A DNA stretch of 64,000 nt from Candidatus Wolframiiraptor gerlachensis (GCA_021323375.2 JAJPCT020000018.1:55079-119078), one strand, 5' to 3'; counted from the stretch's first letter, positions 9,207-25,028 are shown. The notes: a model not told the origin generated them from the letters alone. Numbers and translations are program-made.

Positions 9207-10309
9207 CTCGTCTCCACCTCCTTCACCACATCTCTCACAACTTGCCTAAGATCTATTCCTGCGGGACACCAGGTTATGCACCTGCCGCATCCCACACATC
9301 CAAATGTCCCGAACTGCCTGATCCAATACACGAACTTGTGGAGAACCCAGTGCCTATACCTAGCGTAGAGGCTTTTCCTGAAGTGCCCCCCAGCGACCTG
9401 AGCATAGCTATAGCTATGGCATCCATCCCAGATCCTAATCCTCTTCGCGGATCCATCAAGCTCTGGCTCATCAATAACATCAAAGCAGAAGCATGTAGGG
9501 CATACCATATTACAATTAGCACAGCCGAAACATCTCTCAGCAATCTTCCTATAAACCTCCGAGTCTAATCCCATCTCGAGGGTCTCAGGAAGATTTTCCA
9601 GAGTGAACTCCGCTCGAGCCTTCTTAGACGCATCCAGCATGAGGTTTCTGAGGAAGTCAACCTGTTCATCCTCGGCAGGCCTGAGACTGAGCTCGCTGAG
9701 TATATCCACCCCGAGATCGCTCCCCGGCTGGAAGATTACAACGCCGCTGCCAACCCTAGTATAGGCCACATCGAATCCCTTGAAAGCAAACGGGCCCGTG
9801 CCCATGGTCGCGCAGAAGCATGTATCTCCAGGCTCCACGCAGTTCTCGACGATGAGAAGAAGGTTCTCCCTAACCTTCCGATAATACTCGTCTCCCAGCT
9901 CGCCCTGAACACCATCCATGACATTTATCGCAGCAAGATCACAAGGCTTTATACCGAAAAAGGCCGTCTTGTAGAACTCGAACCTCGGATATTCCACGCT
10001 CAGATCAGGCCTAATGATAAATAGGAGTAGCTCTGGGGGGTATAGGAACCTCTTTGGCGAGTCCGGGCCATGCCTGAACCTGCCGCCATTATTGACAACG
10101 CGATAATATCCAGGAGCCTGCTTATCCCCATAGCCATATGGGATCTCATTGAAATCATTTAATTGCTCAAGCCTTATGACGGAATTCACGAGCTTGGGCC
10201 CTATGACCCTATAACCTCTAGAAACCGCCACATTGAACAGCGACTTAAGGTCATCTTCCACACCGGAGTAGACCGACCCCCGGAACAACACTTGATCTGC
10301 GAAGATCAT
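9194..10309 (-). CDS. hydB: Sulfhydrogenase beta subunit (4Fe-4S dicluster protein)
   Basis: 371 aa. Motifs CFGCANCNMVCPTCFC and CVGCGRCITWCPAGI. It is the first gene of the four-gene operon. Confidence 0.85.
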   Translation of the reverse strand: MIFADQVLFRGSVYSGVEDDLKSLFNVAVSRGYRVIGPKLVNSVIRLEQLNDFNEIPYGYGDKQAPGYYRVVNNGGRFRHGPDSPKRFLYPPELLLFIIRPDLSVEYPRFEFYKTAFFGIKPCDLAAINVMDGVQGELGDEYYRKVRENLLLIVENCVEPGDTCFCATMGTGPFAFKGFDVAYTRVGSGVVIFQPGSDLGVDILSELSLRPAEDEQVDFLRNLMLDASKKARAEFTLENLPETLEMGLDSEVYRKIAERCFGCANCNMVCPTCFCFDVIDEPELDGSAKRIRIWDGCHSYSYAQVAGGHFRKSLYARYRHWVLHKFVYWIRQFGTFGCVGCGRCITWCPAGIDLRQVVRDVVKEVETRCRR

Positions 10310-10591: not shown

Positions 10592-11527
10592 TCAAAGCAC
10601 GCTCACATCGCATTTAACCGATCTATACCTTAACCTATCGATAATTTCATTTTCGCCGAGTTCTATATCCTCGAGATATCTTCTTATCGCCTCGTTGGCC
10701 AGCCTAATATCCTTTGAAAATATGGCTCTTATGGCCTTTTCACGAATATTCCGGCAACGTTCATAATATTCCGTAAGTTTTTGAAGTGTCTCCTTATCAA
10801 GTTCCACCTCGCAGGTCAGTATTTTTAGAACGCTCTTGGCGCCGAGCTTGGATAAATCGGCCATTCTTTCAAGGCAGTAGCCCATTATCGCGAGGAAAGA
10901 TATCTCCAATGGTTGTGTTATCCCTAGATTCTCGGCAAAATTCCTCTTCTTATGAGCGGTTGAGAGGGCTCTGGAGAATAGATAGTAGAGCTTATTTACC
11001 TCCTCATCCCTCAATATCACCATCTTAGCTAGTTCGCGATTCCCCTCAATAAACGCCCTGAAATACTCCTCCTGCATGGATGAGACCAAGTTACAGATCC
11101 TCTCTAGAATTGAATAGATTGAGGACTTAAGGACATCTACTATACATTGTAGCACGACGTGCTGCTCAGTCTCATCCATTACAGAGACCCCTGTCAGCAA
11201 TTTTAACGCCTCCCGGATCTCCTTGATATGCCTATAGCTTAAGCGAGTTTTTGAGATAATCTCGATCATGTCGACACCGGCAATATAGCTCGCAACAATC
11301 AGCCTGTTTAGAAGCCCGGGCTGATCGCATAGATCCGCATTTATCCTGCAGGCTTCAAGGGTATGGTCTGCGTCCGATTTAGCGGGCCACAATCTTAACG
11401 AACCATCATTATATTCTTCGATAACTATGGCGTCCCCCTGCTTAAGACCATGCTCCCTAACCCACCAGTAGGGTAAGGAGATTGTTAAAGTGCCCTTACC
11501 AACACGCTGTATCTTACGCTGCTCCAT
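10592..11527 (-). CDS. AbrB/SpoVT-domain plus PhoU-domain regulator (archaeal phosphate uptake regulator family)
   Basis: 311 aa. N-terminal swapped-hairpin AbrB motif (RKIQRVGKGTLTISLPYWWVREHGLKQGD) followed by two PhoU-like helical repeats. Confidence 0.75.
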   Translation of the reverse strand: MEQRKIQRVGKGTLTISLPYWWVREHGLKQGDAIVIEEYNDGSLRLWPAKSDADHTLEACRINADLCDQPGLLNRLIVASYIAGVDMIEIISKTRLSYRHIKEIREALKLLTGVSVMDETEQHVVLQCIVDVLKSSIYSILERICNLVSSMQEEYFRAFIEGNRELAKMVILRDEEVNKLYYLFSRALSTAHKKRNFAENLGITQPLEISFLAIMGYCLERMADLSKLGAKSVLKILTCEVELDKETLQKLTEYYERCRNIREKAIRAIFSKDIRLANEAIRRYLEDIELGENEIIDRLRYRSVKCDVSVL

Positions 11528-11658: not shown

Positions 11659-12156
11659 TTGGTAAATGCTTGGGGTAAAATGAGTGGGAAGATATGTTCC
11701 GGCAATCTGATCGAATCTCTCCAAAGAATTCAAGAAAAGCAAGGATTCTTGCCGAGAGACTCATTAATAAAGCTTTCCCGGGATACGCGGAGCCCTCTAA
11801 GCAGGATATTCGGTGTAGCGACATTTTACCACCAGTTCAGGCTGGAACCGCCTGGAAAAGTAACGATTGCTGTTTGCATGGGGACTGCATGCCATCTTAG
11901 GGGGAATGCTGAGAACTATGAATTTCTAAGGAGATTCTTGGGTATACGGCCCGACAGATCGACGAGCGATGATGGCCTATTCTCCTTGGAGAAGGCTAGA
12001 TGCTTTGGCTGCTGTAGCCTAGCCCCAGTGGTGAAGATCGGTGATATGCTCGTCGGCAAGGCCACGCCTAGGGAGCTTCAAAAGGCGATCTCCCGCGTTA
12101 GGGAGTCGATTCTGAGGGAGGAGGCTGCTCGCGGGGCTGGGGGTGGTAAGACATGA
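11659..12156 (+). CDS. NuoE/HoxE/HydC-like thioredoxin-like [2Fe-2S] subunit
   Basis: 165 aa. Contains ATFYHQF, CMGTACHLRG and CFGCCSLAPVV, the NuoE 24-kDa family Cys pattern. Confidence 0.85.
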   Translation: MVNAWGKMSGKICSGNLIESLQRIQEKQGFLPRDSLIKLSRDTRSPLSRIFGVATFYHQFRLEPPGKVTIAVCMGTACHLRGNAENYEFLRRFLGIRPDRSTSDDGLFSLEKARCFGCCSLAPVVKIGDMLVGKATPRELQKAISRVRESILREEAARGAGGGKT

Positions 12157-14126
12157 TGAGGCAGGAGTACTGGACATTAATGGATCCATGTTGCGATTAT
12201 TGTCTTCATTCTCGGGACAATCCTTGCGCGAAGTATGTTGTCTGCAGAATGCGCGGGCCATTCTGTCACAGGAGTGTGGAGTGTAGGGAGAAGAGGCAGC
12301 GGAGGATCAGGGAGGTGCTTTACGGCTCGCAGGGCGTTAGAATTAATATCGGTGCATCGAGCTGCGGCTTGGCTGCTGGCGCCGAACGGGTCCTCGAGGC
12401 CGTGAAAGATGGTCTCAGATCAATGGGCGTGGAGGCGGAGGTTTCCGCGGTGGGCTGTCTGGGATTATGCTTCATGGAGCCCTTCATCGAGATTCAGAGC
12501 GAGGATGGTCCATCTCCGATCTATGGCTATGTATCGCCCGAGAATGTTGGCGATATTCTTGCCAGGTATTTTGAGGAGGGGAGCGTGGATGGCGCATTCG
12601 CGATCAGGAAGCGCACGGGCAGATTCAAGGACGAGGATAAGGTCCCCCTCTTGGATGAGCTTGATGTCTGGAGGAAGCAGGTGAAATGGGTTTCTAGAAA
12701 CTGTGGTGTGATTAACCCGGAGTCGATCGAGGAGTATATTGTTACAGGCGGTTATGAGGGGCTTTCAAGAGCGCTGACGATGAGGCCTGAGGAGGTTATC
12801 GAGGAGATTAGGCTGGCGGGGCTTAGGGGTAGAGGTGGAGCCGGGTTCCCAACATGGCTCAAGTGGAAGATATGCCGCGAGCAGCCATCAGAGGAGAAGT
12901 ATGTCATCTGTAATGCTGATGAGGGTGATCCGGGGGCTTTCATGAATAGGCTCTTGGCGGAGTCTGATCCACACAGGGTGCTGGAGGGCATCATAATAGC
13001 TGGATACGCGATAGGCGCTTCTCAGGGCGTGATTTTTGTCAGGGCGGAGAAGCCCCTGATGGCTGCCAGGCTTGAGAAGGCCGTGGAGGATGCTCGCCGA
13101 TGGGGGCTTCTGGGCGAGAATATCCTCGGATCGGGATTCAGCTTCGATGTGAGGGTGATGAGGAGTGCTGGGGCATTTGTATGCGGGGAGGAGACGGCTA
13201 TGATAGCGGCTATCGAGGGGAGGCGTGCGATGCCGCGGCAGCGGCCACCATACCCAGCCTCTAAGGGCCTTTGGGATAAGCCAACGGTGGTCAATAACGT
13301 CGAGACGCTGGCGCATGTCGCGACGATAATGGCGCATGGATGGCGGGAGTTCGCGAAATATGGGACTGAGCGGAGCAAGGGGACGAAGATGTTCTGCGTA
13401 ACCGGCGGCGTTAAGAGGACAGGCGCATTCGAGGTTCCAATAGGCACCACGATCAGGACCCTCGTGTATGATATAGCTGGGGGGCCGCATGAAGGCAGAA
13501 GGATAAAGGCGGTTCAGATAGGAGGACCCTCAGGCGGGTGCCTCCCAGAGAGGCTATTCGACCTACCTATCGATTATGAGAGCCTTCAGGAGGCTGGCGC
13601 GATAATGGGCTCCGGGGGCCTAGTGGTCATAGATGACACTAACTGCATGGTTGATGTGGCGAGATACTTCACTTCATTCACCTTAGCCGAGTCTTGTGGT
13701 AAGTGTATACCATGCAGGGTTGGCACGAAGGCGTTGTATGACCGCTTATCCGCGATAGTTGAGGGTATGAGTAGCCAAGAGGACCTACAATTGCTCGAGG
13801 AGATTGGGATTATGATGAAGGAGGCGGCTCTATGCGCCTTAGGCGGGACCGCGCCAAATCCGATCCTATCATCACTCAGGTACTTTAGAGATGAATATGA
13901 GGCCCATATATTGGAGAAGAGATGCCCGGCGAAAGTTTGTAGAAAGCTTGTCTCATATGCTATAAACCGGGAGCTTTGCGTCAAATGTGGATTATGTGCC
14001 AAGTCATGTCCTGTGGGCGCGATAGCAAAAACAGCTGATGGTTACTTCATGATAGATGAGTCTAGGTGCATCAGATGTGGCACGTGCGTTATCACGTGTC
14101 CGAGAGGTGCTGTTGAGAAGAGGTGA
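12153..14126 (+). CDS. NuoF/HoxF/HydB-like NAD(P)H- and FMN-binding subunit with extra Fe-S domains
   Basis: 657 aa. NuoF core (GRGGAGFPTWLKW, CGKCIPCRVG), a C-terminal 2x[4Fe-4S] domain (CVKCGLCAKSCP, CIRCGTCVITCP), an N-terminal thioredoxin-like domain and a Cys-rich leader. Confidence 0.85.
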   Translation: MMRQEYWTLMDPCCDYCLHSRDNPCAKYVVCRMRGPFCHRSVECREKRQRRIREVLYGSQGVRINIGASSCGLAAGAERVLEAVKDGLRSMGVEAEVSAVGCLGLCFMEPFIEIQSEDGPSPIYGYVSPENVGDILARYFEEGSVDGAFAIRKRTGRFKDEDKVPLLDELDVWRKQVKWVSRNCGVINPESIEEYIVTGGYEGLSRALTMRPEEVIEEIRLAGLRGRGGAGFPTWLKWKICREQPSEEKYVICNADEGDPGAFMNRLLAESDPHRVLEGIIIAGYAIGASQGVIFVRAEKPLMAARLEKAVEDARRWGLLGENILGSGFSFDVRVMRSAGAFVCGEETAMIAAIEGRRAMPRQRPPYPASKGLWDKPTVVNNVETLAHVATIMAHGWREFAKYGTERSKGTKMFCVTGGVKRTGAFEVPIGTTIRTLVYDIAGGPHEGRRIKAVQIGGPSGGCLPERLFDLPIDYESLQEAGAIMGSGGLVVIDDTNCMVDVARYFTSFTLAESCGKCIPCRVGTKALYDRLSAIVEGMSSQEDLQLLEEIGIMMKEAALCALGGTAPNPILSSLRYFRDEYEAHILEKRCPAKVCRKLVSYAINRELCVKCGLCAKSCPVGAIAKTADGYFMIDESRCIRCGTCVITCPRGAVEKR

Positions 14127-14791
14127 TGGTGATGAAGGTTAGGATAAATGGTTTGGAGGTGGAGGCAAGGGAGGGCGAGAGGATACTCGATGTCGCCAAT
14201 CGCCTGGGCATTAGGATACCAACCCTCTGCTATCTCAAAAATGTGTATGAGGGCGCCTCCTGCAGAATCTGCGTCGTCGAGCTAGGTAATGGAAAGTTGA
14301 TACCAGCCTGCGCCTATGAGGTGTCCGATGGCCTCACTATCAGCACCGATACTCCGAGGATTAGGGAGAGCAGGAGGGTGACGCTGGAGCTGCTGCTCTC
14401 TGCTCATAGGATTACGTGCCAGAATTGTCCCAAGAAGGGTGAGTGCACCCTAGTGGAGCTATGCTCCGAGTACGGTGTTGAGGGGATACCAGTATGCGCC
14501 GAGTGCCCTCTCCACGGAGAGGACTGCTTCATCGCGAGGAGCGAGATCTGCCTAGGCCCGATCACGGCTAGCGGATGCAAAGCTGAGTGTATTCGCGATG
14601 GGAGGACTTGCGAGGGCTGCAGGGGTCCAGTCACGAGGAGAGACGTGATAGAGTGGGCTAGAGGGATTTACATCGAGCATGGCATATCGTTGGAGGCGGT
14701 TCTTGAGAAGCTCAAGACATATTGTGCTTCATCACGCGAATTCGACCTAATTCGCGAGTATCTTGTGGTGAAGGAGGTGGTTGAGGGATGA
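14123..14791 (+). CDS. Fusion protein: 2Fe-2S ferredoxin + His-ligated 4Fe-4S module (HoxU/NuoG/HydA N-terminal type) + C-terminal half of a NiFe small subunit
   Basis: 222 aa. N-terminus has CYL...CRIC...C, then HRITCQNCPKKGEC. The C-terminal 8-Cys block CAEC-x6-C-x7-CLGP-x6-C-x3-C-x6-CEGC is nearly superimposable on the C-terminus of the in-window paralog at 7594..8379. Confidence 0.8.
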   Translation: MMVMKVRINGLEVEAREGERILDVANRLGIRIPTLCYLKNVYEGASCRICVVELGNGKLIPACAYEVSDGLTISTDTPRIRESRRVTLELLLSAHRITCQNCPKKGECTLVELCSEYGVEGIPVCAECPLHGEDCFIARSEICLGPITASGCKAECIRDGRTCEGCRGPVTRRDVIEWARGIYIEHGISLEAVLEKLKTYCASSREFDLIREYLVVKEVVEG

Positions 14792-16077
14792 TGAGTGTTC
14801 CTGGTATTGATAGGATAGTGGGCCACGCGACCCTGGACATAGATATGGAGAGAGGGGCGCTGGATGCGCGTTTCAAGGTCTTGAATGATCCACGCTTCAT
14901 AGAGGCCATAGTGCTAGGGAAGAAGTATTATGAGGTTCCATCAATTGTCTCTAGGATATGTGGGCCATGTAGCATAAGCCATACGATAACCGCTACGATG
15001 GCCATAGAGAAGGCTCTTGGAGTGAGCGTCCCGGAGCCGGTGAGAATTCTCAGGAGGATAGCTGTGCTTGGGGAAGTGGTTGAGAACCATCTCCTACATC
15101 TCACGCTGGTGTGCTTGCCGGAATACTTTGGATATGCCGATCTTATTGAGGTCGCCAAGTATAAGCCAGAGCTCCTCAAGAGCATACTGCTCATCAGGTC
15201 ACAGCTTTCCAAGATCATGGAAATGATCTCTGGGAGGCTCGTCCACCCGAACACGCTGATGATAGGTGGGTTCTCCAAGACCCTTGGGAAGACGAAGCTC
15301 GAGGAGGCGAGGAACATGTTAAGGGAGATCAGGGGCAAGATCATCGATATCGCGGAAATATTTCTCGAGATCGAGTTCCCCGAGTTCGAGGTGATAATGG
15401 AAGCATGCGCATCCCTGAGGGACGACTACCTCTACATCGGGGATGAGATAATCACCTCGGATGAACGGAGGGTTAGAGCGGAGGATTATAGGAAGGTGTT
15501 CATAGAGGATGTGCAGCCATATACGACTTCGAAGAGGGTGACGCTTGAGGGGCTGCCCGTATACGTTGGGGCTAGGGCGAGGGTGAACTTGAAGGCCGAC
15601 ATGCTCTCAGAGAGGGCTAAATCCTATCTCAAGGCGAGGAGATTCCCGCTGAGAAACCCGTTCGATAATCTAAGGGCGCAGGCCATAGAACTGATTCACT
15701 GCATGGATGCCATGGAAATGTTAATTGAGGAGGTTCTCAATATCCTCGAAGCCAAGTCAATTCATGTAGGATCAGGGATCATGATTAGGGAGGGTGCTGG
15801 TGTTGGGGTGTCTGAGGCCCCCCGCGGCATACTAATCCACCATTATGAGGTTAATTGCTGGGGCAACGTGGTCTATGCCAACGTGATAACGCCAACGACA
15901 ATAAATTGTAGGCACGTGGAGGTCGCGGCCCTGGAGCTTATCAGGCACTATTTCTACGAGGATGCACCGGCCACTGAGATAGAACGCTACCTGAGAAAGC
16001 TCGTGCAGGCATATGACCCATGTCTCGGCTGCGCAACCCACTCGGTCAAGATAAACATTAGGGGGTTGAAAGCATGA
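14788..16077 (+). CDS. NiFe hydrogenase large subunit (second hydrogenase)
   Basis: 429 aa. Motifs RICGPCSISH and C-terminal DPCLGCATH, followed by a 12-aa extension. Confidence 0.9.
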   Translation: MMSVPGIDRIVGHATLDIDMERGALDARFKVLNDPRFIEAIVLGKKYYEVPSIVSRICGPCSISHTITATMAIEKALGVSVPEPVRILRRIAVLGEVVENHLLHLTLVCLPEYFGYADLIEVAKYKPELLKSILLIRSQLSKIMEMISGRLVHPNTLMIGGFSKTLGKTKLEEARNMLREIRGKIIDIAEIFLEIEFPEFEVIMEACASLRDDYLYIGDEIITSDERRVRAEDYRKVFIEDVQPYTTSKRVTLEGLPVYVGARARVNLKADMLSERAKSYLKARRFPLRNPFDNLRAQAIELIHCMDAMEMLIEEVLNILEAKSIHVGSGIMIREGAGVGVSEAPRGILIHHYEVNCWGNVVYANVITPTTINCRHVEVAALELIRHYFYEDAPATEIERYLRKLVQAYDPCLGCATHSVKINIRGLKA

Positions 16078-17462
16078 GGATCGGCATATACTCATTCGGC
16101 GGATGCGAGGGCTGCAGATACTGGCTAATAGACTCGATGCTGAGAGTATGCGAGGAACTTGGCGCCGAGATAGTCTATGAGCCCCTCATCGGGCTTTCCA
16201 AGGAGAACCCCGAATACGATTTGGTAATCATCGAGGGGGCTGTCTGCACCGACGAGGACTCCGAGAAGCTCCAGAGACTGAGATCTCGAGCGAAGTATCT
16301 CGTCGCCCTAGGCTCCTGTGCCCTGCTCAGCGGTGTGCCAGGCCTTAAGAGGTTCACGGATCCACGCGCGGCCGAGATGGTCTACTTTGGCAAGCCGTTG
16401 CCGAAGAAGCCGGTTGACGTGAAGCCGATAACTGCCTATATTCATGTAGATTATTGGATCAGGGGATGCCCGCCGGATCGAGAGAACTTCGAGAGGCTCT
16501 TTAGGGCCATAATCTCCGGCATCGCCTCCGGGAGGCCTTTCAAGCTCCATGAGAGGAGACTGGAATTCTGCAGGGAGGAATTCACGAGCATCGAGGGAAG
16601 CGTGCTAAGGCTCGACGGCGACAAGTGCATGGTCTGCGGTAGATGTGTCGGCGCCTGCGAGAGGATGGGAGTCTACGCGATAGACTATGCGTACAGGAGC
16701 ATAAGCACAGTCGTGACAACGCCCTTCTCAATACCCTTCGATGAGAGCACATGTGTGCTATGCGGCCAGTGTACGCTCGTCTGCCCGGTCGGCGCGATCC
16801 GCGAGAGGAGTGACCTAGAAAAGGTTCAAAGAATTCTATCAAGGCCCACGGCGCTAAGAGCTTACATAGAGCCTGAGAGCCTAGCAGCTATGTCCAGCTA
16901 CTTCAACCGCGAGGTCGAGGTAATCATTGGAGCGCTTATCGCCAGAGGCTTTGAGAGCGTTGCAATATATGTGCCCGAGTATCACGCCGATGTCGAGAGA
17001 CCGCTGATCCCCGCGAGCGAGGCCGAAAGGAGATTTATCAACATATTCTATCCACAGCTAGCTGAACTATTGTCGGAGCCGCCGGCTCCGCCGGGAGGAT
17101 CATCAGTCCTGATAACGCCGTGCTTAGCTAAGAAGGCGCAGGCCCGTGAGGGATTAGTATTAACAACTCGCGAGGCGATCAAGCTAATCTCCAACATCGA
17201 CTTGGACGAGGTCGAGGGGACCCTCCCCATAATGCCCTCCAGAAAAAGCATCACCTTCAGGGAGGTTCATGGGCCGGATAACGTGATTAGGTTCCTAGAG
17301 GAATATACGAGGGGGGTGCGCGTCAAGGAGCCGATGATACTTAAGATGTGCCCAGGCGGATGCCTTGGAGGCGGAGGACAACCATACTATAACGAGGACC
17401 TCTATCGGAGGATGAATGAGGCGCTTGCGAGGATATCTTCCACGCTCCTAGTCATTGATTGA
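16074..17462 (+). CDS. Fusion protein: N-terminal half of a NiFe small subunit + 2x[4Fe-4S] ferredoxin + degenerate [FeFe]-hydrogenase H-cluster-like domain
   Basis: 462 aa. Residues 1-150 align with the N-terminus of 7594..8379 (FGGCEGC, GSCA, GCP). Next come CMVCGRCVGACE and CVLCGQCTLVCPVGAI. The C-terminus has FeFe-hydrogenase L2-like ITPCLAKKAQA and L3-like KMCPGGCLGGGGQP, but no L1 TSCCP. Confidence 0.8.
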   Translation: MRIGIYSFGGCEGCRYWLIDSMLRVCEELGAEIVYEPLIGLSKENPEYDLVIIEGAVCTDEDSEKLQRLRSRAKYLVALGSCALLSGVPGLKRFTDPRAAEMVYFGKPLPKKPVDVKPITAYIHVDYWIRGCPPDRENFERLFRAIISGIASGRPFKLHERRLEFCREEFTSIEGSVLRLDGDKCMVCGRCVGACERMGVYAIDYAYRSISTVVTTPFSIPFDESTCVLCGQCTLVCPVGAIRERSDLEKVQRILSRPTALRAYIEPESLAAMSSYFNREVEVIIGALIARGFESVAIYVPEYHADVERPLIPASEAERRFINIFYPQLAELLSEPPAPPGGSSVLITPCLAKKAQAREGLVLTTREAIKLISNIDLDEVEGTLPIMPSRKSITFREVHGPDNVIRFLEEYTRGVRVKEPMILKMCPGGCLGGGGQPYYNEDLYRRMNEALARISSTLLVID

Positions 17463-17930
17463 ATCCAGCTCGAGCAGGCGGGATATACTCTCCAATATTT
17501 TCGGGATCGCTTTCTCCACCTCCTCACTCAATCCTATTCCCGGACTTATCTCCTTGGCTCCCACGCCGACTAAGAGGATCCTGCGGGGCATTTTATCCCT
17601 GAAGAGCTCGTATCCCAGCCTGATAGCTGAGACCACGTCAATATCATGCAGCGATTGAATTTCACCGACATGCTCCTGAGACAGCCCACCCAGATCCACC
17701 ACGACCACCTCGCCCGGAGATAATCCGGATTTGACGACATCGACTATTATCAAGCCGTCAAATCCTGTGATCTCGTCCAGGAGCGTGAAGACGTCTAAGC
17801 CTGTTTCAAAGATCTTTACCTCGGCTGGTAGATCGCGCTTGAGAAGGATCTCGCCCACGACTAGGCCGAGAGCATCATCTTTCATGAGCCTGCTGCCAAC
17901 ACATAGTATCAGGATTTTTCGGGCCCTCAT
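17448..17930 (-). CDS. Hydrogenase maturation endopeptidase (HycI/HyaD family)
   Basis: 160 aa. N-terminal ILILCVGSRLMKDDALG matches the GNxxxxDDGxG-type motif. It lies beside hypE/hypD and converges on the hydrogenase operon. Confidence 0.8.
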   Translation of the reverse strand: MRARKILILCVGSRLMKDDALGLVVGEILLKRDLPAEVKIFETGLDVFTLLDEITGFDGLIIVDVVKSGLSPGEVVVVDLGGLSQEHVGEIQSLHDIDVVSAIRLGYELFRDKMPRRILLVGVGAKEISPGIGLSEEVEKAIPKILESISRLLELDSIND

Positions 17931-17983: not shown

Positions 17984-19051
17984 CTAGCAGATCCTGGGAA
18001 CCGGGTCTCCAAGGGGCATCGGCAGATATCTTAGCCCACCTATCTCGGTCTCAACGACGACCCCCTCAAGCTCATCGGAGAACCATCCTATTATCTCGGC
18101 CTCGCGGCCTAGTGGATGAGAGCGGAGGGCTTCCAAGACCTCCTCCGCGAACCTCTCGGAGACCGCTAGGACAACTCTTCCCTCGCATGCCAGTTCAAGC
18201 GGATCTATCCCCAGTATCTCGCAGCCGATTCTCACCTCATCGCGGACCGGTATAAGGGCTTCTTTCACGAGTATGCCGAGGCCCGTGGCCTCGCTCCACT
18301 CATTTAGAAGAGCCGCCAACCCCCCTCTAGTTGGATCCTTCGCCGCCACAACCCCTCCCACCTCGAGAGCCCTCTTCATGAGATGATTCAATGGCGCGGT
18401 ATCCGATTTTAGGCCCGGCGCCTCGAAGCCAAGCTCACCCCTAGCAGCTATAATTGTCATCGCATGGTCGCCGATGGGCCCCGAGACTATCAGCCTATCT
18501 CCCGGCCTCACATTCCGGGGATCAAGCCATCTCGATCTCAGGGATCTCCCATCAGATGCCACCCTCTCCAAGTTCTTATCCAAGTATGGGCTCCTCCCAC
18601 CGATGCCAGCCGTGTTGATTATCATCTCATCGAGCTTGCCCCTTTCCACGACCTTTGTGTCGCCTGTCACGATCTCGACGCCAGCCTCCTCAGCCGTCTC
18701 CTCCATGCTCGATAGAATCCTATCCAGCTTCTCTATCTCGAAGCCCTCCTCGATCACTAAAGCGCATGAGATTGCTATGGGCTCGCTTCCCACCACTGAG
18801 AGATCGTTCACGGTCCCGGAGACGCTGAGCCTCCCTATATCGCCTCCAGGGAAGAAGAGGGGCTTAACGGTATAGGAGTCTGTCGTGAACGCTATCCCAT
18901 CGACAACAGCCGAGTCGGCGAGGAGGGGGAGAGGGATCTCAATAACCCTCCTCTGCTTAAACCTTGGAAGAATATGCTCCCTGATAAGCTTATGCATGTA
19001 GAGGCCGCCAGCACCATGTGCTATGCTTATCCTATTATCCACGCCCACCAA
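17984..19051 (-). CDS. hypE: Hydrogenase expression/formation protein HypE
   Basis: 355 aa. AIR-synthase-like fold and the hallmark C-terminal PRIC. Confidence 0.93.
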   Translation of the reverse strand: MVGVDNRISIAHGAGGLYMHKLIREHILPRFKQRRVIEIPLPLLADSAVVDGIAFTTDSYTVKPLFFPGGDIGRLSVSGTVNDLSVVGSEPIAISCALVIEEGFEIEKLDRILSSMEETAEEAGVEIVTGDTKVVERGKLDEMIINTAGIGGRSPYLDKNLERVASDGRSLRSRWLDPRNVRPGDRLIVSGPIGDHAMTIIAARGELGFEAPGLKSDTAPLNHLMKRALEVGGVVAAKDPTRGGLAALLNEWSEATGLGILVKEALIPVRDEVRIGCEILGIDPLELACEGRVVLAVSERFAEEVLEALRSHPLGREAEIIGWFSDELEGVVVETEIGGLRYLPMPLGDPVPRIC

Positions 19052-19076
19052 AAATCACCCCACACTCACGATCTCC

Positions 19077-20252
19077 TCAGGGGCCTCGCCTCACGATTAA
19101 TCCACAGACCCCGCTCATACATCTGATATCCTTAACCAATATCCTGTTCTGAGCCCATATCCTGCATGTTCCCTCAATCCCAACCATCGCCGGGCCCACC
19201 GGAGTCGATGGGGTACACTTCTTCATGTATAGGGGGCAGTCCGGTGGATCAATAATCCCCTTTATTATCTCGGCGCATCTAGCCTCCGACGGGAAGCAGT
19301 CTCCTCCTCCATGCTCTAGGCCATAAGTCCTTCTAGCATCAACTTGGGAGAACATTTCCTTAAAGTTCATGGCACTTTCAGGTATTATCGCGACACCTCT
19401 CCAATAGCCATCCTCGAAATCGAAGACCTCTTGGAGAGCCTTCTGCGCCTTCAGGTTCCCCTCCCACGTCACAGATCTCACATACTCGTTCTCCATCCTC
19501 GGGGCGCGATCCCTTAGCTGCTTGAGAACCATGTAGATCGCCATCAAGACGTCTATGGGCTCGAAGCCCGCGAAGACCATCGGCTTGCCACACTTATCGA
19601 AATACGGCTTATACGCCTTCATACCGCTCACGGTCGAGGCGTGGCCCGGATTTATGAAAGCATCTATCTCGAGATCCTCGGATTCCGCTAGAAGCCCGAC
19701 AGCCGGCGGGACATACCTGTGGGCGGAGAGGACCTTAAGGTTTCTCGGAAGCCCCTTCAGGACGAAATAGGCCACGGTTGGCGCCGTGGTCTCAAAGCCT
19801 GCTCCAAGGAATACATACTCCTTATCCGGGTTACTGCTAGCGATCTTGACAGCATCCATGAAGCTATACACAACCCCAACCCTCCCACCCTCAGCAGCAC
19901 AATCCTCCAGCGAGATCATCCTAGAACCCTTAGCCCTAGACACATCACCATAGGTAAGCACATGGATCCCATCAAGCGCGAGCCCGACGGCCACATCTAT
20001 ATCAGATGCAGGGGTTATGCAGACTGGGCAGCCGGGTCCAGCCCTAACCTCAACATTATCCGGCAGAAGAGCCCTAATACCCCAATGAGTTATGGTCCAC
20101 TCATGAGTCCCACACACATGCATTATCCTAACCCTCGGAAGATCCCTAGCAACCTCCCAGATCTTCTCAACTAGCCTCCTAGCAAGAGCTGGATCCCTAT
20201 ATCTCGAAAGAATCACCCTCACACGATCCAAGGACCCCATACCATCTATCAC
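19077..20252 (-). CDS. hypD: Hydrogenase expression/formation protein HypD
   Basis: 391 aa. Contains the GPGCPVC motif, CGTHE and C-terminal Cys motifs. Confidence 0.93.
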   Translation of the reverse strand: MIDGMGSLDRVRVILSRYRDPALARRLVEKIWEVARDLPRVRIMHVCGTHEWTITHWGIRALLPDNVEVRAGPGCPVCITPASDIDVAVGLALDGIHVLTYGDVSRAKGSRMISLEDCAAEGGRVGVVYSFMDAVKIASSNPDKEYVFLGAGFETTAPTVAYFVLKGLPRNLKVLSAHRYVPPAVGLLAESEDLEIDAFINPGHASTVSGMKAYKPYFDKCGKPMVFAGFEPIDVLMAIYMVLKQLRDRAPRMENEYVRSVTWEGNLKAQKALQEVFDFEDGYWRGVAIIPESAMNFKEMFSQVDARRTYGLEHGGGDCFPSEARCAEIIKGIIDPPDCPLYMKKCTPSTPVGPAMVGIEGTCRIWAQNRILVKDIRCMSGVCGLIVRRGP

Positions 20253-20358: not shown

Positions 20359-21333
20359 TCAGTCATAAAGATGGCAGGCTACTAAGTGCCCCGGTTGATA
20401 CTGCCTGAGCTCAGGAATCACCTGCTTGCATACGTCCATTACATATGGGCATCTCGGGTGAAATCTACATCCCGCCGGGGGGTTAGATAAGTCGGGTGGC
20501 TCACCTTTAATCACCTCCCTGATCTTAAATCTGTTTGAGGGATCCGGGTCGGGAATAGCATCTATCAGTGCCTTAGTATATGGGTGTAACGGATTCTTCA
20601 ACAGTGTAGAGGAGGGCCCCAATTCTATTATCTTTCCAGCATACATCACCGCGATTCTCTCGGAGAAGTATTTTGACGTGGCGATATCATGTGTTATGTA
20701 AAGGTATGATAGATTATGCTTCCTCTGAAGTTCCCTCAACAATAAAAGTATCTCCACCCTGACAGAAGCATCTAGCATAGAGACTGGCTCGTCAGCCACT
20801 ATGAAGTCCGGCCTAAGAACCAGCGCCCTAGCGATAGCCACCCTCTGCCTTTGGCCGCCGCTGAGCATGTGTGGGTATTTTCTCGCGAACTCCTCGGGAG
20901 GTATAAGCCTCACCTCCTCTAGGGCCCTCATAACAAGCTCAGCCCGCTCCTCCCTCGTCCCAATACTATGTATCTCTAGAGGCTCCTCTATCACCTTAAA
21001 AACACTGTAACTGGGGTCGATGCTCGCATATGGATCTTGGAAGATCATTGCCATGTGTCTCCTGAGCTTCTTCATCTCGTTATAATTTGTGTTTGTGATC
21101 TCTTGACCCTTGAAGAAGATCTTGCCAGCAGTCGGCTCAATTATTCTCAATAATGTCTTTCCAAGAGTTGTTTTACCGCAGCCGCTTTCACCCACCAATG
21201 CCAGTGTTTCACCGGGATAAATCTCGAGGCTAACTCCATCAACTGCCCTAACATAACCAGCTATCCTGAACAAGCCTTTTCTAACAGGGAAATAGGTTTT
21301 AAGATCTATCGCCCTTATGACAGGATCACTCAT
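20359..21333 (-). CDS. Peptide (Opp/Dpp-type) ABC transporter ATP-binding protein
   Basis: 324 aa. Walker A GESGCGKTT, signature LSGGQRQR, Walker B FIVADEP and a C-terminal CRFHPRCP oligopeptide-transporter domain. Confidence 0.9.
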   Translation of the reverse strand: MSDPVIRAIDLKTYFPVRKGLFRIAGYVRAVDGVSLEIYPGETLALVGESGCGKTTLGKTLLRIIEPTAGKIFFKGQEITNTNYNEMKKLRRHMAMIFQDPYASIDPSYSVFKVIEEPLEIHSIGTREERAELVMRALEEVRLIPPEEFARKYPHMLSGGQRQRVAIARALVLRPDFIVADEPVSMLDASVRVEILLLLRELQRKHNLSYLYITHDIATSKYFSERIAVMYAGKIIELGPSSTLLKNPLHPYTKALIDAIPDPDPSNRFKIREVIKGEPPDLSNPPAGCRFHPRCPYVMDVCKQVIPELRQYQPGHLVACHLYD

Positions 21334-22307
21334 GCACCTTCACCTCCATACAGCCAACAAACAACATAATGCCCTCCTCCGATATCGAACTCAGGAGGCT
21401 CCTCAACATCACACTTGCCTTTTATCATGTAGGGGCATCTTGGATGGAATCTACATCCTGAAGGTGGATTTCTTAAGTCGGGCGGCGCGCCCGGTATGAA
21501 TGATGGTGGGATATCCTGTCTTAACCTCGGGATACTATTGAGTAGCAGTTTCATATATGGATGGGCGGGGGAAAGATAAACGTCATCAGCTGGCCCGCGT
21601 TCGACAATCTTTCCAGCATACATAACTGCGACAGAGTCTGCCAGCTCACTGCTCAACGCGAGGTCATGTGTTATGAAAATATAGGATAAGCCTCGTTCCT
21701 GCTTCAGCTGCTTTAAGAGATTGATTATGTTGGCCTGGGTTATTATGTCGAGTGCCGACGTTGGCTCATCGAGGATAACTATCTTCGGCCTAGTCACTAG
21801 GGCCATTGCGATACAGACTCTTTGCTTCATCCCACCGCTGAGCTCGTGAGGATATCTTTCAGAAACTCCTTTAGGCAGTCCAACCTCCTCTAGAGCCTCC
21901 TCAGCTATCGCTAGCGCGTCTTTCTTATTAAGACCAAAATTATGAATTAGGGGCTCAGCCACCTGAAATCCGACCTTCAGCACCGGGTTTAGGGCGTTCA
22001 TAGCTCCCTGAAATACTATAGATATGATCCTCCACCTTACATTTCTTCTGAACTCCTCCTCAGGGAGCTTCATGACATCTAATCCATTCATGTAAATCTC
22101 GCCTTCGTATCTTGCGGTATTTGGTGGAAGCAGGCGCATCAATGCCATGGCTGTGGAGCTCTTCCCGCACCCGCTCTCCCCAACTAAAGCTATAGCACGT
22201 CTACTCTGAAGCTCAAAGAATATTCCGTCAACTGCTCTTACAATAGATCTTCCGGACCTATAATGCAGAAAAAGCTTTTTAACACTTAATACCTGCGGCT
22301 CGCTCAT
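21330..22307 (-). CDS. Peptide (Opp/Dpp-type) ABC transporter ATP-binding protein
   Basis: 325 aa. Walker A GESGCGKSS, signature LSGGMKQR and a C-terminal CRFHPRCP domain. Confidence 0.9.
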   Translation of the reverse strand: MSEPQVLSVKKLFLHYRSGRSIVRAVDGIFFELQSRRAIALVGESGCGKSSTAMALMRLLPPNTARYEGEIYMNGLDVMKLPEEEFRRNVRWRIISIVFQGAMNALNPVLKVGFQVAEPLIHNFGLNKKDALAIAEEALEEVGLPKGVSERYPHELSGGMKQRVCIAMALVTRPKIVILDEPTSALDIITQANIINLLKQLKQERGLSYIFITHDLALSSELADSVAVMYAGKIVERGPADDVYLSPAHPYMKLLLNSIPRLRQDIPPSFIPGAPPDLRNPPSGCRFHPRCPYMIKGKCDVEEPPEFDIGGGHYVVCWLYGGEGA

Positions 22308-22321
22308 CTCATTTCACCATA

Positions 22322-23752
22322 CTAGCCGGTTCTGAGTCTAGGATTAACAACAGGTTCCATTCCAAGTGCTATAAGTACGAATGTAAAGGCTGTTAAAACG
22401 ATCATGACCCCCGGCGGGATTATCCACCACCATAATCCCAGATATATCGCGCCATTCCTGAATCCAAGCTCCAGCATCTGCCCCCATGTTGGAAGTGATG
22501 GATCTCCAAGCCCGAGGAAGCTGAGCGCGGCTTCAAGCAGGATAAACGTCGGTACATAGAATATCATTTGAGCCACGATAAATGGCATCACTTGGGGTAG
22601 CATATGCCTGAAGATTATTCTCCAAGGTGAACTGCCGAAGGATTTTGCAGCCTCAATATATTGCGCCTCCTTTAATTGCAGCGTTATTGATCTTGTAACT
22701 ATTGTCAGTCCTGGCCAACCGAACACTATTAAGAGGAGAACGATGTTCCAAATACTCGAGCCCATCAGGAAGATGAGAAATATTGTTAGCGGGAGAAGAG
22801 GAAGATTATAAACTATGTCGGATGTTCTCTGGGTAATCTCATCTATCTTGCCGCCGAAGTATCCGCCTATAATACCTAGGAGACATCCAATTAAAGTCAC
22901 TATTACGGAGGTTATAATTCCTATGAAGAGCGATGTCGGGAAGCCCAATAAGACGCCAATCGCAATATCTCGCCCAATTACATCGGTGCCGAGTAGCCCG
23001 TAAACGCTTCCGCCAAGAATTAGGGAGATATCGTCTACTGAGTCCCTCTCATTATATGCCGTCACAGCAACCTCGAACCTATATCTCCCCTTTAATGGGG
23101 AGGAGAAATTGCCTTCGATGGGGGATCCAAAGATAAATCGCTCTGGGTTCCTACCAATCTCGGATGGACTAAAGCTTAATCCATAGCTCTCTTTCAGGAA
23201 TAATGAGACGCTTCTCCAGACATTTACATCAGAATCTATCTTCAAGATAAATGGCTCTTCTCCATAACGCAAGTAGGGAGGCTTCTCCCCCTCTCTTGGA
23301 GATGGCACTATGAATGACGTCAGCTCAACAGCCTTTCCATCGGGTCTCAGGAGTTTAAGCGCGATAATTGGTGGAGATTTCCAGTATCTCACGTCTCTCA
23401 CCAACATTGAGAAGAACTTTGGAAATTCGTCTGAGTCATAATCTAGGTCAAAGTAATAGAGTTTCTTGATTGTTCCATCCGGCACCCTAAATACTACTGG
23501 TTCACGGGCCTCCAGTATTTTGTGCTCGAAGAGCTTGGATTGTGTGAAAAAGTTCACCCATGAAGGTGGGGCAGATTTCGGGTAATTCTCCCAGGCTTTT
23601 GGATTGTTCCAGACAAGTTTCCCATAGTCCGGCGGAAATGCCACTAATGCATAGATTGAGAATGCCAGCAGGATTATCAGGAGCACTACTCCCAGCTTTG
23701 AGACCGAGCTCGAAAAGAATACTTGGAGCATCTCTTTCCTCGATGAGATCAT
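22322..23752 (-). CDS. Peptide ABC transporter permease (OppC/DppC type) with long N-terminal extracytoplasmic extension
   Basis: 476 aa. N-terminal TM helix, a roughly 230-aa loop, then a BPD-transporter core containing the EAA-like motif YIEAAKSFGSSPWRIIFRHMLP. Confidence 0.85.
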   Translation of the reverse strand: MISSRKEMLQVFFSSSVSKLGVVLLIILLAFSIYALVAFPPDYGKLVWNNPKAWENYPKSAPPSWVNFFTQSKLFEHKILEAREPVVFRVPDGTIKKLYYFDLDYDSDEFPKFFSMLVRDVRYWKSPPIIALKLLRPDGKAVELTSFIVPSPREGEKPPYLRYGEEPFILKIDSDVNVWRSVSLFLKESYGLSFSPSEIGRNPERFIFGSPIEGNFSSPLKGRYRFEVAVTAYNERDSVDDISLILGGSVYGLLGTDVIGRDIAIGVLLGFPTSLFIGIITSVIVTLIGCLLGIIGGYFGGKIDEITQRTSDIVYNLPLLPLTIFLIFLMGSSIWNIVLLLIVFGWPGLTIVTRSITLQLKEAQYIEAAKSFGSSPWRIIFRHMLPQVMPFIVAQMIFYVPTFILLEAALSFLGLGDPSLPTWGQMLELGFRNGAIYLGLWWWIIPPGVMIVLTAFTFVLIALGMEPVVNPRLRTG

Positions 23753-24795
23753 ATTCTCACCCTAGGATCAAGCATGACATAAAAGATCTCGAGCACAAAC
23801 CTAGCTATGACATAGACAAGTGTGAAGACATAGACTAAACCTAGGATCAGGGCTTCATCACCCGAGACTATTGCTTGGTAGAAGAGCAGGCCCATACCAG
23901 GCCATCCGAAAACCGTCTCCGTCAAGATGGCGCCACCTATGGATCCGGCCAAACCCAGTATTAGCTGGGTTAAGATTGGTGGTGCTGCAACTCTCGCGAT
24001 ATATCTCCATCTGACTATGCGCTCTGGTAGCCCTTTAGCCCTAGCTGCTAGTACGAAATCCTCCTGAGCTATATTCATGACCACAGTTCTAGTAACGTAA
24101 ATGTTGGAGCCGACTGTAGCTAGAACTAGGACTATGATCGGGAGTGTTGCATGCCAGAGGAGGTCGAGAAACCTTGCTAATACATCATCGGGCGGGGGGA
24201 TGCTATACATCCCTCCCGGCGGGAAGATCCTAAGATAGAAGTAGAATATGAGTATGAAGATTATCCCAGTCCACCATGTTGGTAGAGCATATGAAATTGC
24301 GGAGAAGTATGTAAGTGCTCTATCGAGCTTTGAGCCTATGGCTGTCGCTAATTTAACCCCCACTAAGAGACCAATTATGAAGGATAATACGGTTGCGGTT
24401 GTAACGAGGAGAATCGTGTTAGGTAGTCTCTCCATTATTAGATCCACAACCTTATTGCTACCAGAGAATGTTTGGAGTGACTTGGAGACTCCTAAGTCGA
24501 GGAATATTATCCTCCTAAACATATCTCCGATTCTGGTGTACCATGGTTTATCAAGCCCATAGGCCTTTATCAGCTCCTGCCGGTAGGTCTCAACGGCTTT
24601 CTCCAGGGCCTCGGGATCGGTTATCGTTCTAGAGATTGCTTGTCTGTAGGTGCTTACCTCTTGCCTGACTATAGACATCAATATCTTGTCGGAGGTTCCA
24701 GTTGCACCTATTATTACGACAACTAGAAAGAGTACTAAAAGGAGGACGAGTAGAAGGTTTACGGCCCGGATGGCCAGTGTCTTTGCCAGCCCCAT
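23749..24795 (-). CDS. Peptide ABC transporter permease (OppB/DppB type)
   Basis: 348 aa. Multi-TM protein with the EAA-like motif FVLAARAKGLPERIVRWRY. Confidence 0.85.
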   Translation of the reverse strand: MGLAKTLAIRAVNLLLVLLLVLFLVVVIIGATGTSDKILMSIVRQEVSTYRQAISRTITDPEALEKAVETYRQELIKAYGLDKPWYTRIGDMFRRIIFLDLGVSKSLQTFSGSNKVVDLIMERLPNTILLVTTATVLSFIIGLLVGVKLATAIGSKLDRALTYFSAISYALPTWWTGIIFILIFYFYLRIFPPGGMYSIPPPDDVLARFLDLLWHATLPIIVLVLATVGSNIYVTRTVVMNIAQEDFVLAARAKGLPERIVRWRYIARVAAPPILTQLILGLAGSIGGAILTETVFGWPGMGLLFYQAIVSGDEALILGLVYVFTLVYVIARFVLEIFYVMLDPRVRI

Positions 24796-24842
24796 TATTT
24801 TCGTTAAAAAAATAAAGGGGTAAAGTAATAAACCTTGCAGCG

Positions 24843-25028
24843 CTAGGACATCCTTCGCTGCCTTATAATGGCGACTGCGGACAATGCGACAGCAATTATC
24901 GAGATCACCAGCACGATAGTTGCTATTATTAATAGGTTCTGGACAGCATCTCTTAGATCAGAGGTCTCTTTATGTAACACCGCGACATTGGCGCCCAGTT
25001 CTGATAGTGACTTGCTGATATCGCTCAT
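24843..25028 (-). CDS. 61-aa helical segment plus C-terminal TM anchor; probably the detached C-terminal anchor of the substrate-binding protein
   Basis: One TM helix (LLIIATIVLVISIIAVALSAVAII) followed by RQRR. It is in the same frame as 25056..26669, separated only by TAA plus 9 sense codons. Confidence 0.5.
   Translation of the reverse strand: MSDISKSLSELGANVAVLHKETSDLRDAVQNLLIIATIVLVISIIAVALSAVAIIRQRRMS

Follow-up and report, generated by a model that had tools for sequence, protein, structure and literature searches.

We analysed a 64,000-nucleotide stretch of the genome of Candidatus Wolframiiraptor gerlachensis (GCA_021323375.2 JAJPCT020000018.1:55079-119078; hereafter the window, with positions counted from its first letter), which carries a hybrid hydrogenase operon of five overlapping open reading frames (ORFs) on the plus strand. 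The last gene of this operon (16074..17462) encodes a 462-aa fusion protein that joins part of a [NiFe] hydrogenase small subunit to a relative of the H-cluster domain (H-domain) of [FeFe] hydrogenases. The C-terminal part of the protein, aa 247-462, is a genuine but shortened H-domain, in which the site for the [4Fe-4S] cubane looks complete by alignment, with three cysteines and a serine as predicted ligands, and only the di-iron half appears degenerate. We consider it fairly probable that the operon specifies a soluble archaeal [NiFe] hydrogenase of five subunits built on a HydABC scaffold of the Bfu type, whose H-site [4Fe-4S] cluster would lie on a side branch and would not be catalytic. 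The architecture is not new: the operon is a further member of the group F [FeFe] / group 3f [NiFe] hybrid hydrogenases published by Greening et al. (Cell 2024; PMC11216029), group F being defined by this very fusion. An earlier sequence-only reading of the window, which described the domain as a degenerate H-domain, is thus partly supported: its observation is confirmed and its interpretation was mostly right, but it was wrong about the fourth cubane ligand and missed the prior publication.

Domain architecture of the fusion protein

The fusion protein comprises three domains encoded consecutively on the plus strand. The first (16074..16553) corresponds to the N-terminal half of a NiFe small subunit, the half with the proximal cluster, and has Cys11, Cys14, Cys82 and Cys132 (PF01058 at aa 11-144, E 2.2e-20; E 1.2e-18 against the sulfhydrogenase delta subunit 9e1j in PDB). 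The second (16596..16811, aa 175-246) is a HydA-type F-domain for two [4Fe-4S] clusters, with the cysteine sets 185/188/191/195 and 227/230/233/237; it is recognized by the Fer4 models of Pfam, corresponds to positions 137-223 of the NCBIfam model NF040763, and finds its best PDB stretch in residues 131-255 of HydA1 8a6t (independent E-value 7e-22). The third (16812..17459, aa 247-462) is the minimised H-domain, identified by PF02906 and by AlphaFold2 modelling with Foldseek.

The assignment of the third domain draws on profiles, pairwise searches and predicted structure. The PF02906 model (Fe_hyd_lg_C) aligns aa 344-434 with profile positions 124-245 of 245 at 24.7 bits, above the gathering score of 22.1, and scores 27.7 bits (E 2.6e-6) when the 210-aa stretch is searched alone; the match is confined to the second half of the profile. 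In a phmmer search of the fusion protein against PDB, the top matches were the bifurcating HydA1 of T. kivui (8a6t, E 3e-28), HydA of T. maritima and Clostridium CpI, aligned over fusion aa 170-291 and 392-447. An AlphaFold2 model of aa 247-462 alone has a mean predicted local distance difference test score (pLDDT) of 89.7, and the best 50 Foldseek matches of this domain-only model in PDB are all [FeFe] H-domains (E 1e-10 to 1e-7, query TM-score 0.65-0.73), in alignments that cover ~330 target columns, which means ~115 extra residues in the targets. The full-length fusion model gives E values of about 1e-17. An H-domain profile searched against 1.84 billion representative proteins retrieved 891 proteins at E <=0.001; among the matches listed, those outside the fused family are mostly [FeFe] hydrogenases, as judged from their L1 and L3 motifs. 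Since profile, fold and library-wide profile search agree, the H-domain match is far above chance. Two NCBIfam models score well under their cut-offs in the window (NF040763, 103 bits vs 765; TIGR02512, 86 bits vs 406).

The sequence-only reading had taken the last ~210 residues to be collinear with the [FeFe] H-domain and had named a profile search and a structure prediction as checks; both were run and neither refuted it, PF02906 scoring above its gathering score and the confidently modelled domain matching only [FeFe] H-domains among its best 50 PDB structures. The residue pairs that it had aligned by hand are reproduced by MAFFT against CpI: FYPQLAELL with YYPELLNNL, ITPCLAKK of motif L2 with MPCTSKK (Cys350 with CpI Cys355), VLTTREAIKLI with VITTRELAKMI, and KMCPGGCLGGGGQP of motif L3 with VMACHGGCVNGGGQP (Cys426 with Cys499 and Cys430 with Cys503).

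Two simpler explanations were rejected. The fusion did not arise by a frameshift or assembly chimera, since more than 40 clusters from independent assemblies share its architecture and have similar lengths (427-501 aa). An intact L1 motif overlooked in the hand alignment is likewise ruled out, with only three cysteines in the domain and TSC[CS]P in no fused homologue.

Residues kept and lost in the H-domain

We compared CpI positions by MAFFT in 41 fused proteins of the same three-part architecture (427-501 aa), with CpI numbering taken from HMMER alignments to PDB chains; the two Thermoplasmata proteins tested by Greening et al., Th1 and Th2, stand outside this set. The three cubane cysteines, Cys355, Cys499 and Cys503, are kept in all 41 proteins. 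In the window protein they correspond to Cys350, Cys426 and Cys430, the only cysteines of its H-like domain. The L2 remnant LITPCLAKKAQ (17109..17141, plus strand) retains the core PCxxK, including Lys353 at the position of CpI Lys358, and has threonine for Met353 and glutamine for Glu361, whereas the L3 remnant LKMCPGGCLGGGGQP (17340..17384, plus strand) retains the core CxxGCxxGGGQP, has lysine for Met497 and lacks the L3 glutamate.

The surroundings of the di-iron site are a different matter. In place of the L1 stretch S-C-C-P-G-W the window protein has PASEAE (aa 313-318; 17010..17027, plus strand), with Ala314 aligned to Cys299 and Ser315 to Cys300; thus TSCCP is missing and PLIPASEAE stands opposite CpI PMFTSCCPG, and the proton-transfer cysteine is gone, both as had been read from the sequence. 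The motif TSC[CS]PxW with relay Cys299, which a competent H-domain requires, is therefore not present in the window. Among the 41 proteins, position 299 is cysteine in only seven and position 300 is serine in 38 and cysteine in three, the latter of Brockarchaeota type. Neither Met353 nor Met497 is methionine in any of them (0/41), and the Lys358 position holds lysine, arginine or tryptophan, with arginine or tryptophan in most members. Glu279 is gapped in all 41 and Glu282 in 40, the exception being a leucine in P0128; Phe417, Gly418 and Val423 are gapped throughout.

These gaps reflect five CpI segments that are deleted in the window protein: 277-292 with Glu279 and Glu282, 327-346, 365-375, 404-458, and the C-terminal tail 536-574. 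Segment 404-458, which carries Phe417 and the GGVMEAALR helix, is deleted in every fused member. A full-length H-domain with the Phe417 segment and the proton path Glu279/Glu282/Ser319 is accordingly not present in the window, and the shortening that the sequence-only reading had noticed is borne out by this deletion map. It is common to all 41 fused homologues and is no private decay of the window gene.

Comparison with the orthologue of Ca. Wolframiiraptor allenii (87% identity) put the ratio of nonsynonymous to synonymous substitution rates (dN/dS) at 0.12 in the H-like domain, against 0.11 in the small-subunit domain; the ferredoxin part had 0.04. With a dN/dS of 0.12 the H-like domain is under purifying selection, being maintained and not decaying. 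Its mean pairwise identity within the family is only 36%, and the four positions of the cubane ligands belong to the few columns that do not vary.

The fourth of these positions deserves separate attention. Ser315 is in the exact register of Cys300: Pro327 follows Ser315 by 12 residues as Pro312 follows Cys300, with no gap up to the conserved Tyr-Pro. In the Brockarchaeota-type members, Cys-Cys occupies positions 299-300 in the same columns as Ala-Ser of the window protein, and in a 20-sequence alignment (A2), which predates the addition of the three members with Cys at 300, Pro313, Ser315 and Glu318 are invariant. Serine at this position is common beyond the family as well, TSCSP (and not TSCCP) being found in 80 of the 97 [FeFe] hydrogenases closest to the window protein and also in A. 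woodii HydA1. The cryo-electron microscopy structure of the latter shows that Ser301 replaces one cysteine ligand of the [4Fe-4S] subcluster, with the H-cluster spectra unaffected (PMC10021017). All four cubane ligand positions are thus filled in the window protein, by Ser315, Cys350, Cys426 and Cys430. Because of the register of Ser315 and the precedent for serine ligation in A. woodii HydA1, no ligand seems to be missing from the cubane site, with its three cysteines and one serine, and degeneration would be limited to the di-iron half of the H-cluster site. The sequence-only reading had counted three surviving cysteine ligands, which stands, and had declared the fourth ligand gone, which does not: the position is occupied by Ser315 here and by serine in 38 of the 41 proteins.

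Operon organization and the split small subunit

The four genes upstream of the fusion gene, all on the plus strand, encode HydC, HydB, HydD and HyhL. HydC (11659..12156, 165 aa) is a NuoE/HoxE-like protein with a thioredoxin-fold [2Fe-2S] domain (PF01257, E 2.6e-37; HoxE/NuoE models of NCBIfam). HydB (12153..14126, 657 aa) is a NuoF-like flavoprotein (PF01512, E 2.8e-47; PF10589; NCBIfam nuoF_fam, E 1e-137) that combines an N-terminal CCxxC prefix (NF040902), a flavin mononucleotide (FMN)/NAD(H) site, an SLBB domain, an N3-type [4Fe-4S] site and a C-terminal 2x[4Fe-4S] ferredoxin domain (two Fer4 matches in Pfam at aa 603-653). The clusters predicted for the CCxxC prefix and the C-terminal ferredoxin domain are typical of the type found in bifurcating BfuB. 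HyhL (14788..16077, 429 aa) is the NiFe large, catalytic subunit (PF00374; NCBIfam ShyA, E 2.7e-81) with both NiFe-binding motifs intact, RICGPCSISH at aa 56 and DPCLGCATH at aa 410, and a C-terminal extension beyond His418.

HydD (14123..14791, 222 aa), an iron-sulfur protein recognized by Pfam and NCBIfam models, is by its domain matches itself a chimera of a HydA N-terminus and the C-terminal half of a NiFe small subunit. Its N-terminal half (14123..14482) matches PF13510 and PF10588 and, over residues 5-126, positions 2-124 of NF040763 (E 3.3e-36), with Cys36/47/50/63 as ligands of a [2Fe-2S] cluster and His95 with Cys99/102/108 as those of a His-ligated [4Fe-4S] cluster. Its C-terminal half (14483..14764) is the medial/distal-cluster half of a group 3b-type small subunit by NCBIfam models, with eight cysteines between residues 125 and 166; residues 121-208 match the sulfhydrogenase delta models NF040831 at positions 157-238 of 240 (E 2.5e-13) and NF040836 at positions 164-252 of 261. 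Together these ligands (four, His plus three, and eight) are sufficient for four clusters.

An intact delta subunit encoded ~6 kb upstream, at 7594..8379 on the minus strand, makes the division explicit. In BLASTP its residues 9-173 align with fusion aa 2-167 (E 5e-18) and its residues 168-255 with HydD residues 124-214 (37% identity, E 4e-11). By these alignments a break near residue 168 divides the NiFe small subunit into two parts, each of which is fused to one half of HydA. The operon thus has HydA(N)+delta(C) before the NiFe large subunit and delta(N)+HydA(C) after it, which gives the impression of a "deltaC-alpha-deltaN" cassette placed within hydA, between the His-cluster module and the F-domain. 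HydD of the Brockarchaeota type shows the same split. The sequence-only reading had proposed that the operon holds every module of HydA, which agrees with NF040763 positions 2-124 in HydD and positions 137-223 in the fusion protein, and with PF02906 positions 124-245 in the latter. It had also proposed that a NiFe unit took over, or was inserted into, that scaffold, and the delta alignments sharpen this to a cassette within hydA.

Proposed function and alternative readings

In the function that we favour, H2 would be made or split at the NiFe site of HyhL only. Electrons would pass to the proximal [4Fe-4S] cluster in the N-terminal domain of the fusion protein, to the medial and distal clusters on the C-terminal half of HydD, and next to a Y-junction of the HydA type formed by the His-[4Fe-4S] and [2Fe-2S] clusters of HydD and the two [4Fe-4S] clusters of the fusion protein. 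The order would be proximal, medial, distal, His-cluster, F-cluster, [2Fe-2S] and HydB FMN, where the FMN would couple NAD(P)(H) and, via the clusters of HydC and HydB, ferredoxin in flavin-based bifurcation. We infer this order by analogy and the bifurcation from the subunit types: HydB and HydC are of the Bfu type (PF01512, PF10589, NF040902, C-terminal 2x Fer4 and PF01257), whereas the A. mobile arrangement of separate HydA, one-cluster HydS and HydL is not found in the window. The H-domain would most likely hold a plain [4Fe-4S] cluster, because the cubane site is kept and relay Cys299, Met353, Met497, Glu279/Glu282 and the 404-458 cover loop are lost. Such a cluster, lying where a side branch ends, would have a structural role, store electrons or do both, as a dead end equivalent to A5 of A. 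mobile.

Several points weigh against this proposal. In Greening et al. (2024; PMC11216029), H2 production is reported for one of two artificially matured Thermoplasmata fusion proteins, matured Th1 (Thermoplasmata SG8-5) having made H2 at ~5% of the CrHydA1 level in lysate, and the H-cluster Cys ligands are stated to be conserved in the modelled member. Ultraminimal group E enzymes (~286 aa) are active despite condensed loops, so loop loss alone is no proof of inactivity. The same paper notes that most archaea with active [FeFe] hydrogenases are without hydEFG (PMC11216029), so missing maturase genes are of little weight. Finally, the electron-transfer order is drawn by analogy and not from a model of the complex, and cluster occupancy and ligation by serine are predicted from the alignment.

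The first of these points also favours the published interpretation of group F as a true minimal [FeFe] catalytic site, with a full H-cluster or a cofactor from an unknown pathway and hence two H2-activating sites in one enzyme, which we hold to be unlikely for the window protein. Apart from Th1 and from AlphaFold models that place the H-cluster cysteines in a Thermoplasmatota member (PMC11216029), it could draw on the strict conservation of the bridging Cys503 equivalent, Cys355, Cys499 and the GGGQP loop, on purifying selection of the domain, and on the seven members that keep Cys299, among them Brockarchaeota with the full Cys-Cys pair. Against it, the window protein has alanine at relay position 299. 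Variants of CpI and CrHydA1 at this position (Cys299 and Cys169, respectively) are nearly inactive, and PDB entries for C299A and C299D are among the Foldseek matches of the full-length model. The positions of Met353 and Met497 never hold methionine, Lys358 is replaced by arginine or tryptophan in most members, and segment 404-458 and Glu279 are deleted in 41/41 and Glu282 in 40/41. Th2, the second protein tested, had low activity and was nearly inactive (PMC11216029).

The maturation genes point the same way. As the sequence-only reading had stated of hydE/F/G, no radical SAM candidate, and so no candidate for HydE or HydG, was found in the window, where no ORF of at least 120 aa has CxxxCxxC within its first 150 residues; P-loop ORFs occur only within an oligopeptide-type transporter cluster and are ATPase-like as judged by eye, no family search having been run on them. 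In the one related locus looked at for this purpose (L084, Brockarchaeota type), the radical SAM gene is of the SPASM type TIGR04084 and not HydE/HydG. The alignment argues that a true catalytic H-domain does not apply to most of the 41 compared members, including the window protein. There is also a slim chance that the minimised domain with three cysteines and one serine still assembles a catalytic or H2-binding iron cofactor in a host apparently without HydEFG. If so, two chemically different H2 sites would share one bifurcating scaffold, and the pocket, at ~215 residues, would be the smallest known for an H-cluster.

That the domain is instead an empty structural relic, holding no metal cluster and offering a docking surface for subunits or the dimer, seems very unlikely. 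The equivalent arm of the A. mobile enzyme does lie in the dimer interface and was judged non-functional in electron transfer (PMC8880783), and the most divergent members of the fused family, P0023 and P0136, have lost the GGGQP loop while keeping the three cysteines. However, three cysteines and a serine are kept in essentially all 41 proteins across Thermoproteota, Bathyarchaeia, Brockarchaeota and the Asgard lineages (Odin-, Njord- and Asgardarchaeia), and invariance of the four ligand positions at a mean identity of 36% is not what an empty relic would lead one to expect.

Sensory [FeFe] hydrogenases typically have neither Cys299 nor Met497. A role in H2 sensing or regulation, as in H-domains of the HydS type in groups C/D, which lack the relay cysteine, would tune the enzyme to the H2 partial pressure. 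It is nevertheless highly improbable, since neither the protein nor the operon has a PAS, kinase or other output domain, sensory enzymes keep a full-length H-domain with the di-iron pocket whose segments are deleted here, and the nearest relatives in sequence and structure are bifurcating HydA proteins of group A, not group C. We therefore retain the noncatalytic side-branch [4Fe-4S] cluster as the preferred interpretation.

Distribution and operon conservation of the fused family

The fused family is rare: 5.8 billion proteins contain about 45 of its clusters at 90% identity. When 25 diverse members were combined into a profile search, only one further member came to light, and all fused proteins found constitute one family, separated by more than 100 bits from the group A matches. 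Named members come from Njordarchaeales, Odinarchaeota, Asgardarchaeia, Bathyarchaeia and Brockarchaeota, while the loci found in GTDB genomes belong to Wolframiiraptor, Desulfurococcales, Thermofilaceae, a Pyrobaculum metagenome-assembled genome, Bathyarchaeia and an unclassified archaeon. No Thermoplasmatota are among the 14 full- or near-full-length relatives from the genome scan.

The gene order HydC-HydB-HydD-HyhL-fusion is conserved in 9 of the 14 GTDB loci, these nine coming from Caldarchaeales, Desulfurococcales, Thermofilaceae, Pyrobaculum and the unclassified archaeon. Three loci, all from Bathyarchaeia, keep all operon genes but hyhL; of the remaining two, one is a short contig and one a contig that begins inside the operon. 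HydC is the first gene of the operon in all 11 related loci that cover the position, and conservation is highest for HydB, which retains 57-68% identity in distant loci. In the Bathyarchaeia loci L004 (9306..11143), L007 (6958..8970) and L014 (322..2335), the fusion gene directly follows hydD without a large-subunit gene; in L004, a divergent pair of large and small subunits is encoded downstream on the opposite strand.

The Brockarchaeota-type locus L084 differs in another respect: in its HydB (4440..6095, 551 aa), neither the CCxxC prefix nor the C-terminal 2x[4Fe-4S] domain seen in HydB of the window gives a match. Some members may thus be unable to reduce ferredoxin, and hence to bifurcate. 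Upstream of the operon in the same locus (927..3891) lie genes for a radical SAM/SPASM protein (TIGR04084, E 4e-127), a HycI protease and a double-GAF protein. The representative library also contains P0122, a protein of 4122 aa with tandem complete copies of an algal-type minimal HydA (period 444 residues, at least six identical L3 motifs); it must be a product of faulty assembly or gene calling, or else a poly-hydrogenase.

In public sequencing data, ten DNA runs contain at least half of the sampled words of the fusion gene (nine hot-spring metagenomes and one organism-labelled run), four of them at >=95%; no RNA runs with the gene were found.

Neighbouring genes

Both sides of the hybrid operon are occupied by genes of [NiFe] hydrogenases and their maturation. 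Downstream and on the minus strand are a maturation endopeptidase of the HycI family for NiFe large subunits (17448..17930; PF01750, E 2.2e-18), which is syntenic in L001 and L002, and HypD with an adjoining HypE candidate (17984..20252). HypD matches PF01924 (E 7.5e-124); the HypE candidate is proposed from an AIR-synthase fold match (AIRS/AIRS_C) and its position beside HypD. Upstream, also on the minus strand, 3943..10309 encodes HypF and a canonical four-subunit NiFe hydrogenase of the group 3b sulfhydrogenase type (beta, gamma, delta, alpha) according to Pfam and BLASTP, with the hydrogenase genes proper at 6309..10309. This adjoining enzyme corresponds, in unsplit form, to what the hybrid has of a NiFe hydrogenase, its large subunit sharing 30% identity with HyhL in BLASTP, and a 3b gene set is the likely source type of those parts. 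A canonical group 3b sulfhydrogenase also adjoins the hybrid operon in the distant Brockarchaeota-type locus L084 (9983..13886), and the side-by-side pairing may be conserved.

Between the two hydrogenase gene sets, and divergent from the hybrid operon, lies a gene for a PhoU-domain protein with an AbrB/SpoVT-like N-terminal start (10592..11527, minus strand), a candidate regulator. Beyond the hyp genes, a cluster for an oligopeptide/dipeptide-type ATP-binding cassette (ABC) transporter (20359..26669, minus strand) appears by eye to encode two ATPases, two permeases and a likely binding protein, and the same transporter genes flank the operon in Ca. Wolframiiraptor allenii (L001).

Comparison with known systems

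The nearest relatives of HyhL and of both small-subunit halves are group 3b sulfhydrogenases of the P. furiosus SHI/SHII type, by the ShyA and the ShyD/HydD delta models. The hybrid differs from group 3b enzymes in that the beta/gamma diaphorase is replaced by HydB, HydC and HydA-type modules and that delta is split at ~168; all model scores for the window parts are far under the equivalog cut-offs.

HydABC enzymes of the TSCSP type (A. woodii HydA1, PDB 7Q4V; NF040763, 'group A6') match the F- and H-domains best, in sequence as well as in structure. They share with the window protein the serine at the fourth cubane-ligand position and the HydB and HydC partners. However, HydA of this type is a single catalytic chain of 570-600 aa with a full H-domain, the relay cysteine and all pocket residues.

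The next-best profile matches outside the fused family are bacterial HydA-like proteins of 430-450 aa (P0137, P0138, P0160 and P0177), each matched in a single stretch at E 1e-16 to 1e-10. They carry deletions at CpI 277-290, 364-373, 405-455 and in the C-terminal tail, and some of them at 327-341, where the window protein has its gap 327-346. Like the window protein, they lack the relay cysteine and keep the L2 and L3 cysteines; unlike it, they have cysteine at position 300 in an xCPA motif, include the HydA N-terminus within their single chain and lack a NiFe small-subunit domain. Further bacterial proteins with a minimised H-domain are P0142, P0165, P0183 and P0185. At the one locus inspected, that of P0137 (L081, 2059..7344), a NuoF-like gene, a small ferredoxin, a 703-aa flavin adenine dinucleotide oxidoreductase and a TRAP transporter are encoded and no hydrogenase, which looks like a non-hydrogenase electron-transfer complex. 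From these sequences, the minimised cubane-only H-domain looks like an electron-transfer module that recurs in different proteins and that may be older than the archaeal fusion.

The closest structural precedent is NiFe-HydABCSL of Acetomicrobium mobile (PDB 7T2R/7T30; Feng et al., 2022; PMC8880783), as the sequence-only reading had recognized. In that enzyme a [4Fe-4S] cluster, A5, occupies the place of the H-cluster. Electrons take the route FMN-B1-A1-A2-A3-S1-NiFe, the arm with A4 and A5 being a dead end that lies at the dimer interface (PMC8880783). Both systems place a NiFe catalytic pair on a HydABC bifurcating core with HydB and HydC of the same type. The A. mobile enzyme differs in having HydA (692 aa), HydS (with one cluster) and HydL as separate, unsplit proteins, whereas in the window the small subunit, with all three cluster sites, is split and reciprocally fused with the HydA halves. 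No sequence similarity was detectable between the window H-like domain and the A. mobile C-terminal domain, 7t2r_A matching the ferredoxin part only (E 4e-6). Because it lacks this likeness and is closer to true [FeFe] HydA, the window domain suggests an independent origin.

The hybrid enzymes of Greening et al. (2024; PMC11216029) match most closely. As in the group F/3f hybrids, an N-terminal group 3 small-subunit domain and a C-terminal HydA domain share one ORF; the same five contiguous genes are present (HydC, HydB, a NuoG-like HydD with four clusters, HyhL and the fusion), a cluster that the authors describe in 21 archaeal genomes; and the setting is archaeal, anoxic and geothermal. The Brockarchaeota protein P0131 (487 aa), from a lineage named in the paper as Brockarchaeia, is a clear full-length member of the fused family, and its homologue P0270 (80% identical) lies in the same operon. 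On the strength of architecture, operon and this Brockarchaeota member, the fused family is probably identical with the whole of group F.

The host extends the known range: Wolframiiraptor is a genus that we take to belong to Caldarchaeales. A Caldarchaeales-like lineage is not among the classes given there for group F (PMC11216029). A second difference concerns the H-site, since group F is described there as having all H-cluster cysteines C1-C5 (CpI 299, 300, 355, 499 and 503), whereas the window protein has Ala314 and Ser315 at the first two; the CxxxC for which the authors filtered is present in it.

The family was presented in 2024 as [FeFe] and [NiFe] hydrogenases cooperating in one complex, with a bona fide catalytic H-domain (PMC11216029). 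Set against this, the relay cysteine is absent in the window protein and in 34 of the 41, the two methionines and the 404-458 cover loop are absent in all, and the cubane site (three cysteines plus serine or cysteine) is present in every one. Whether such enzymes have one or two catalytic sites becomes a testable question with members that carry Ala-Ser, Cys-Ser or Cys-Cys at positions 299-300, and such genes should not be counted as [FeFe] hydrogenases in genome annotation before position 299 and segment 404-458 have been checked.

The cluster assignments differ too. Greening et al. treat HydD as a NuoG-like conduit and equate three relay clusters of the fusion with the small-subunit clusters (PMC11216029, cited part), whereas in the window HydD carries the small subunit's medial/distal half, and the fusion owes its two additional clusters to the HydA F-domain. 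The chimeric nature of HydD is not described in the cited part of that paper (PMC11216029), and the reciprocal split gives a tangible idea of the way in which the two lineages of enzymes came to be joined.

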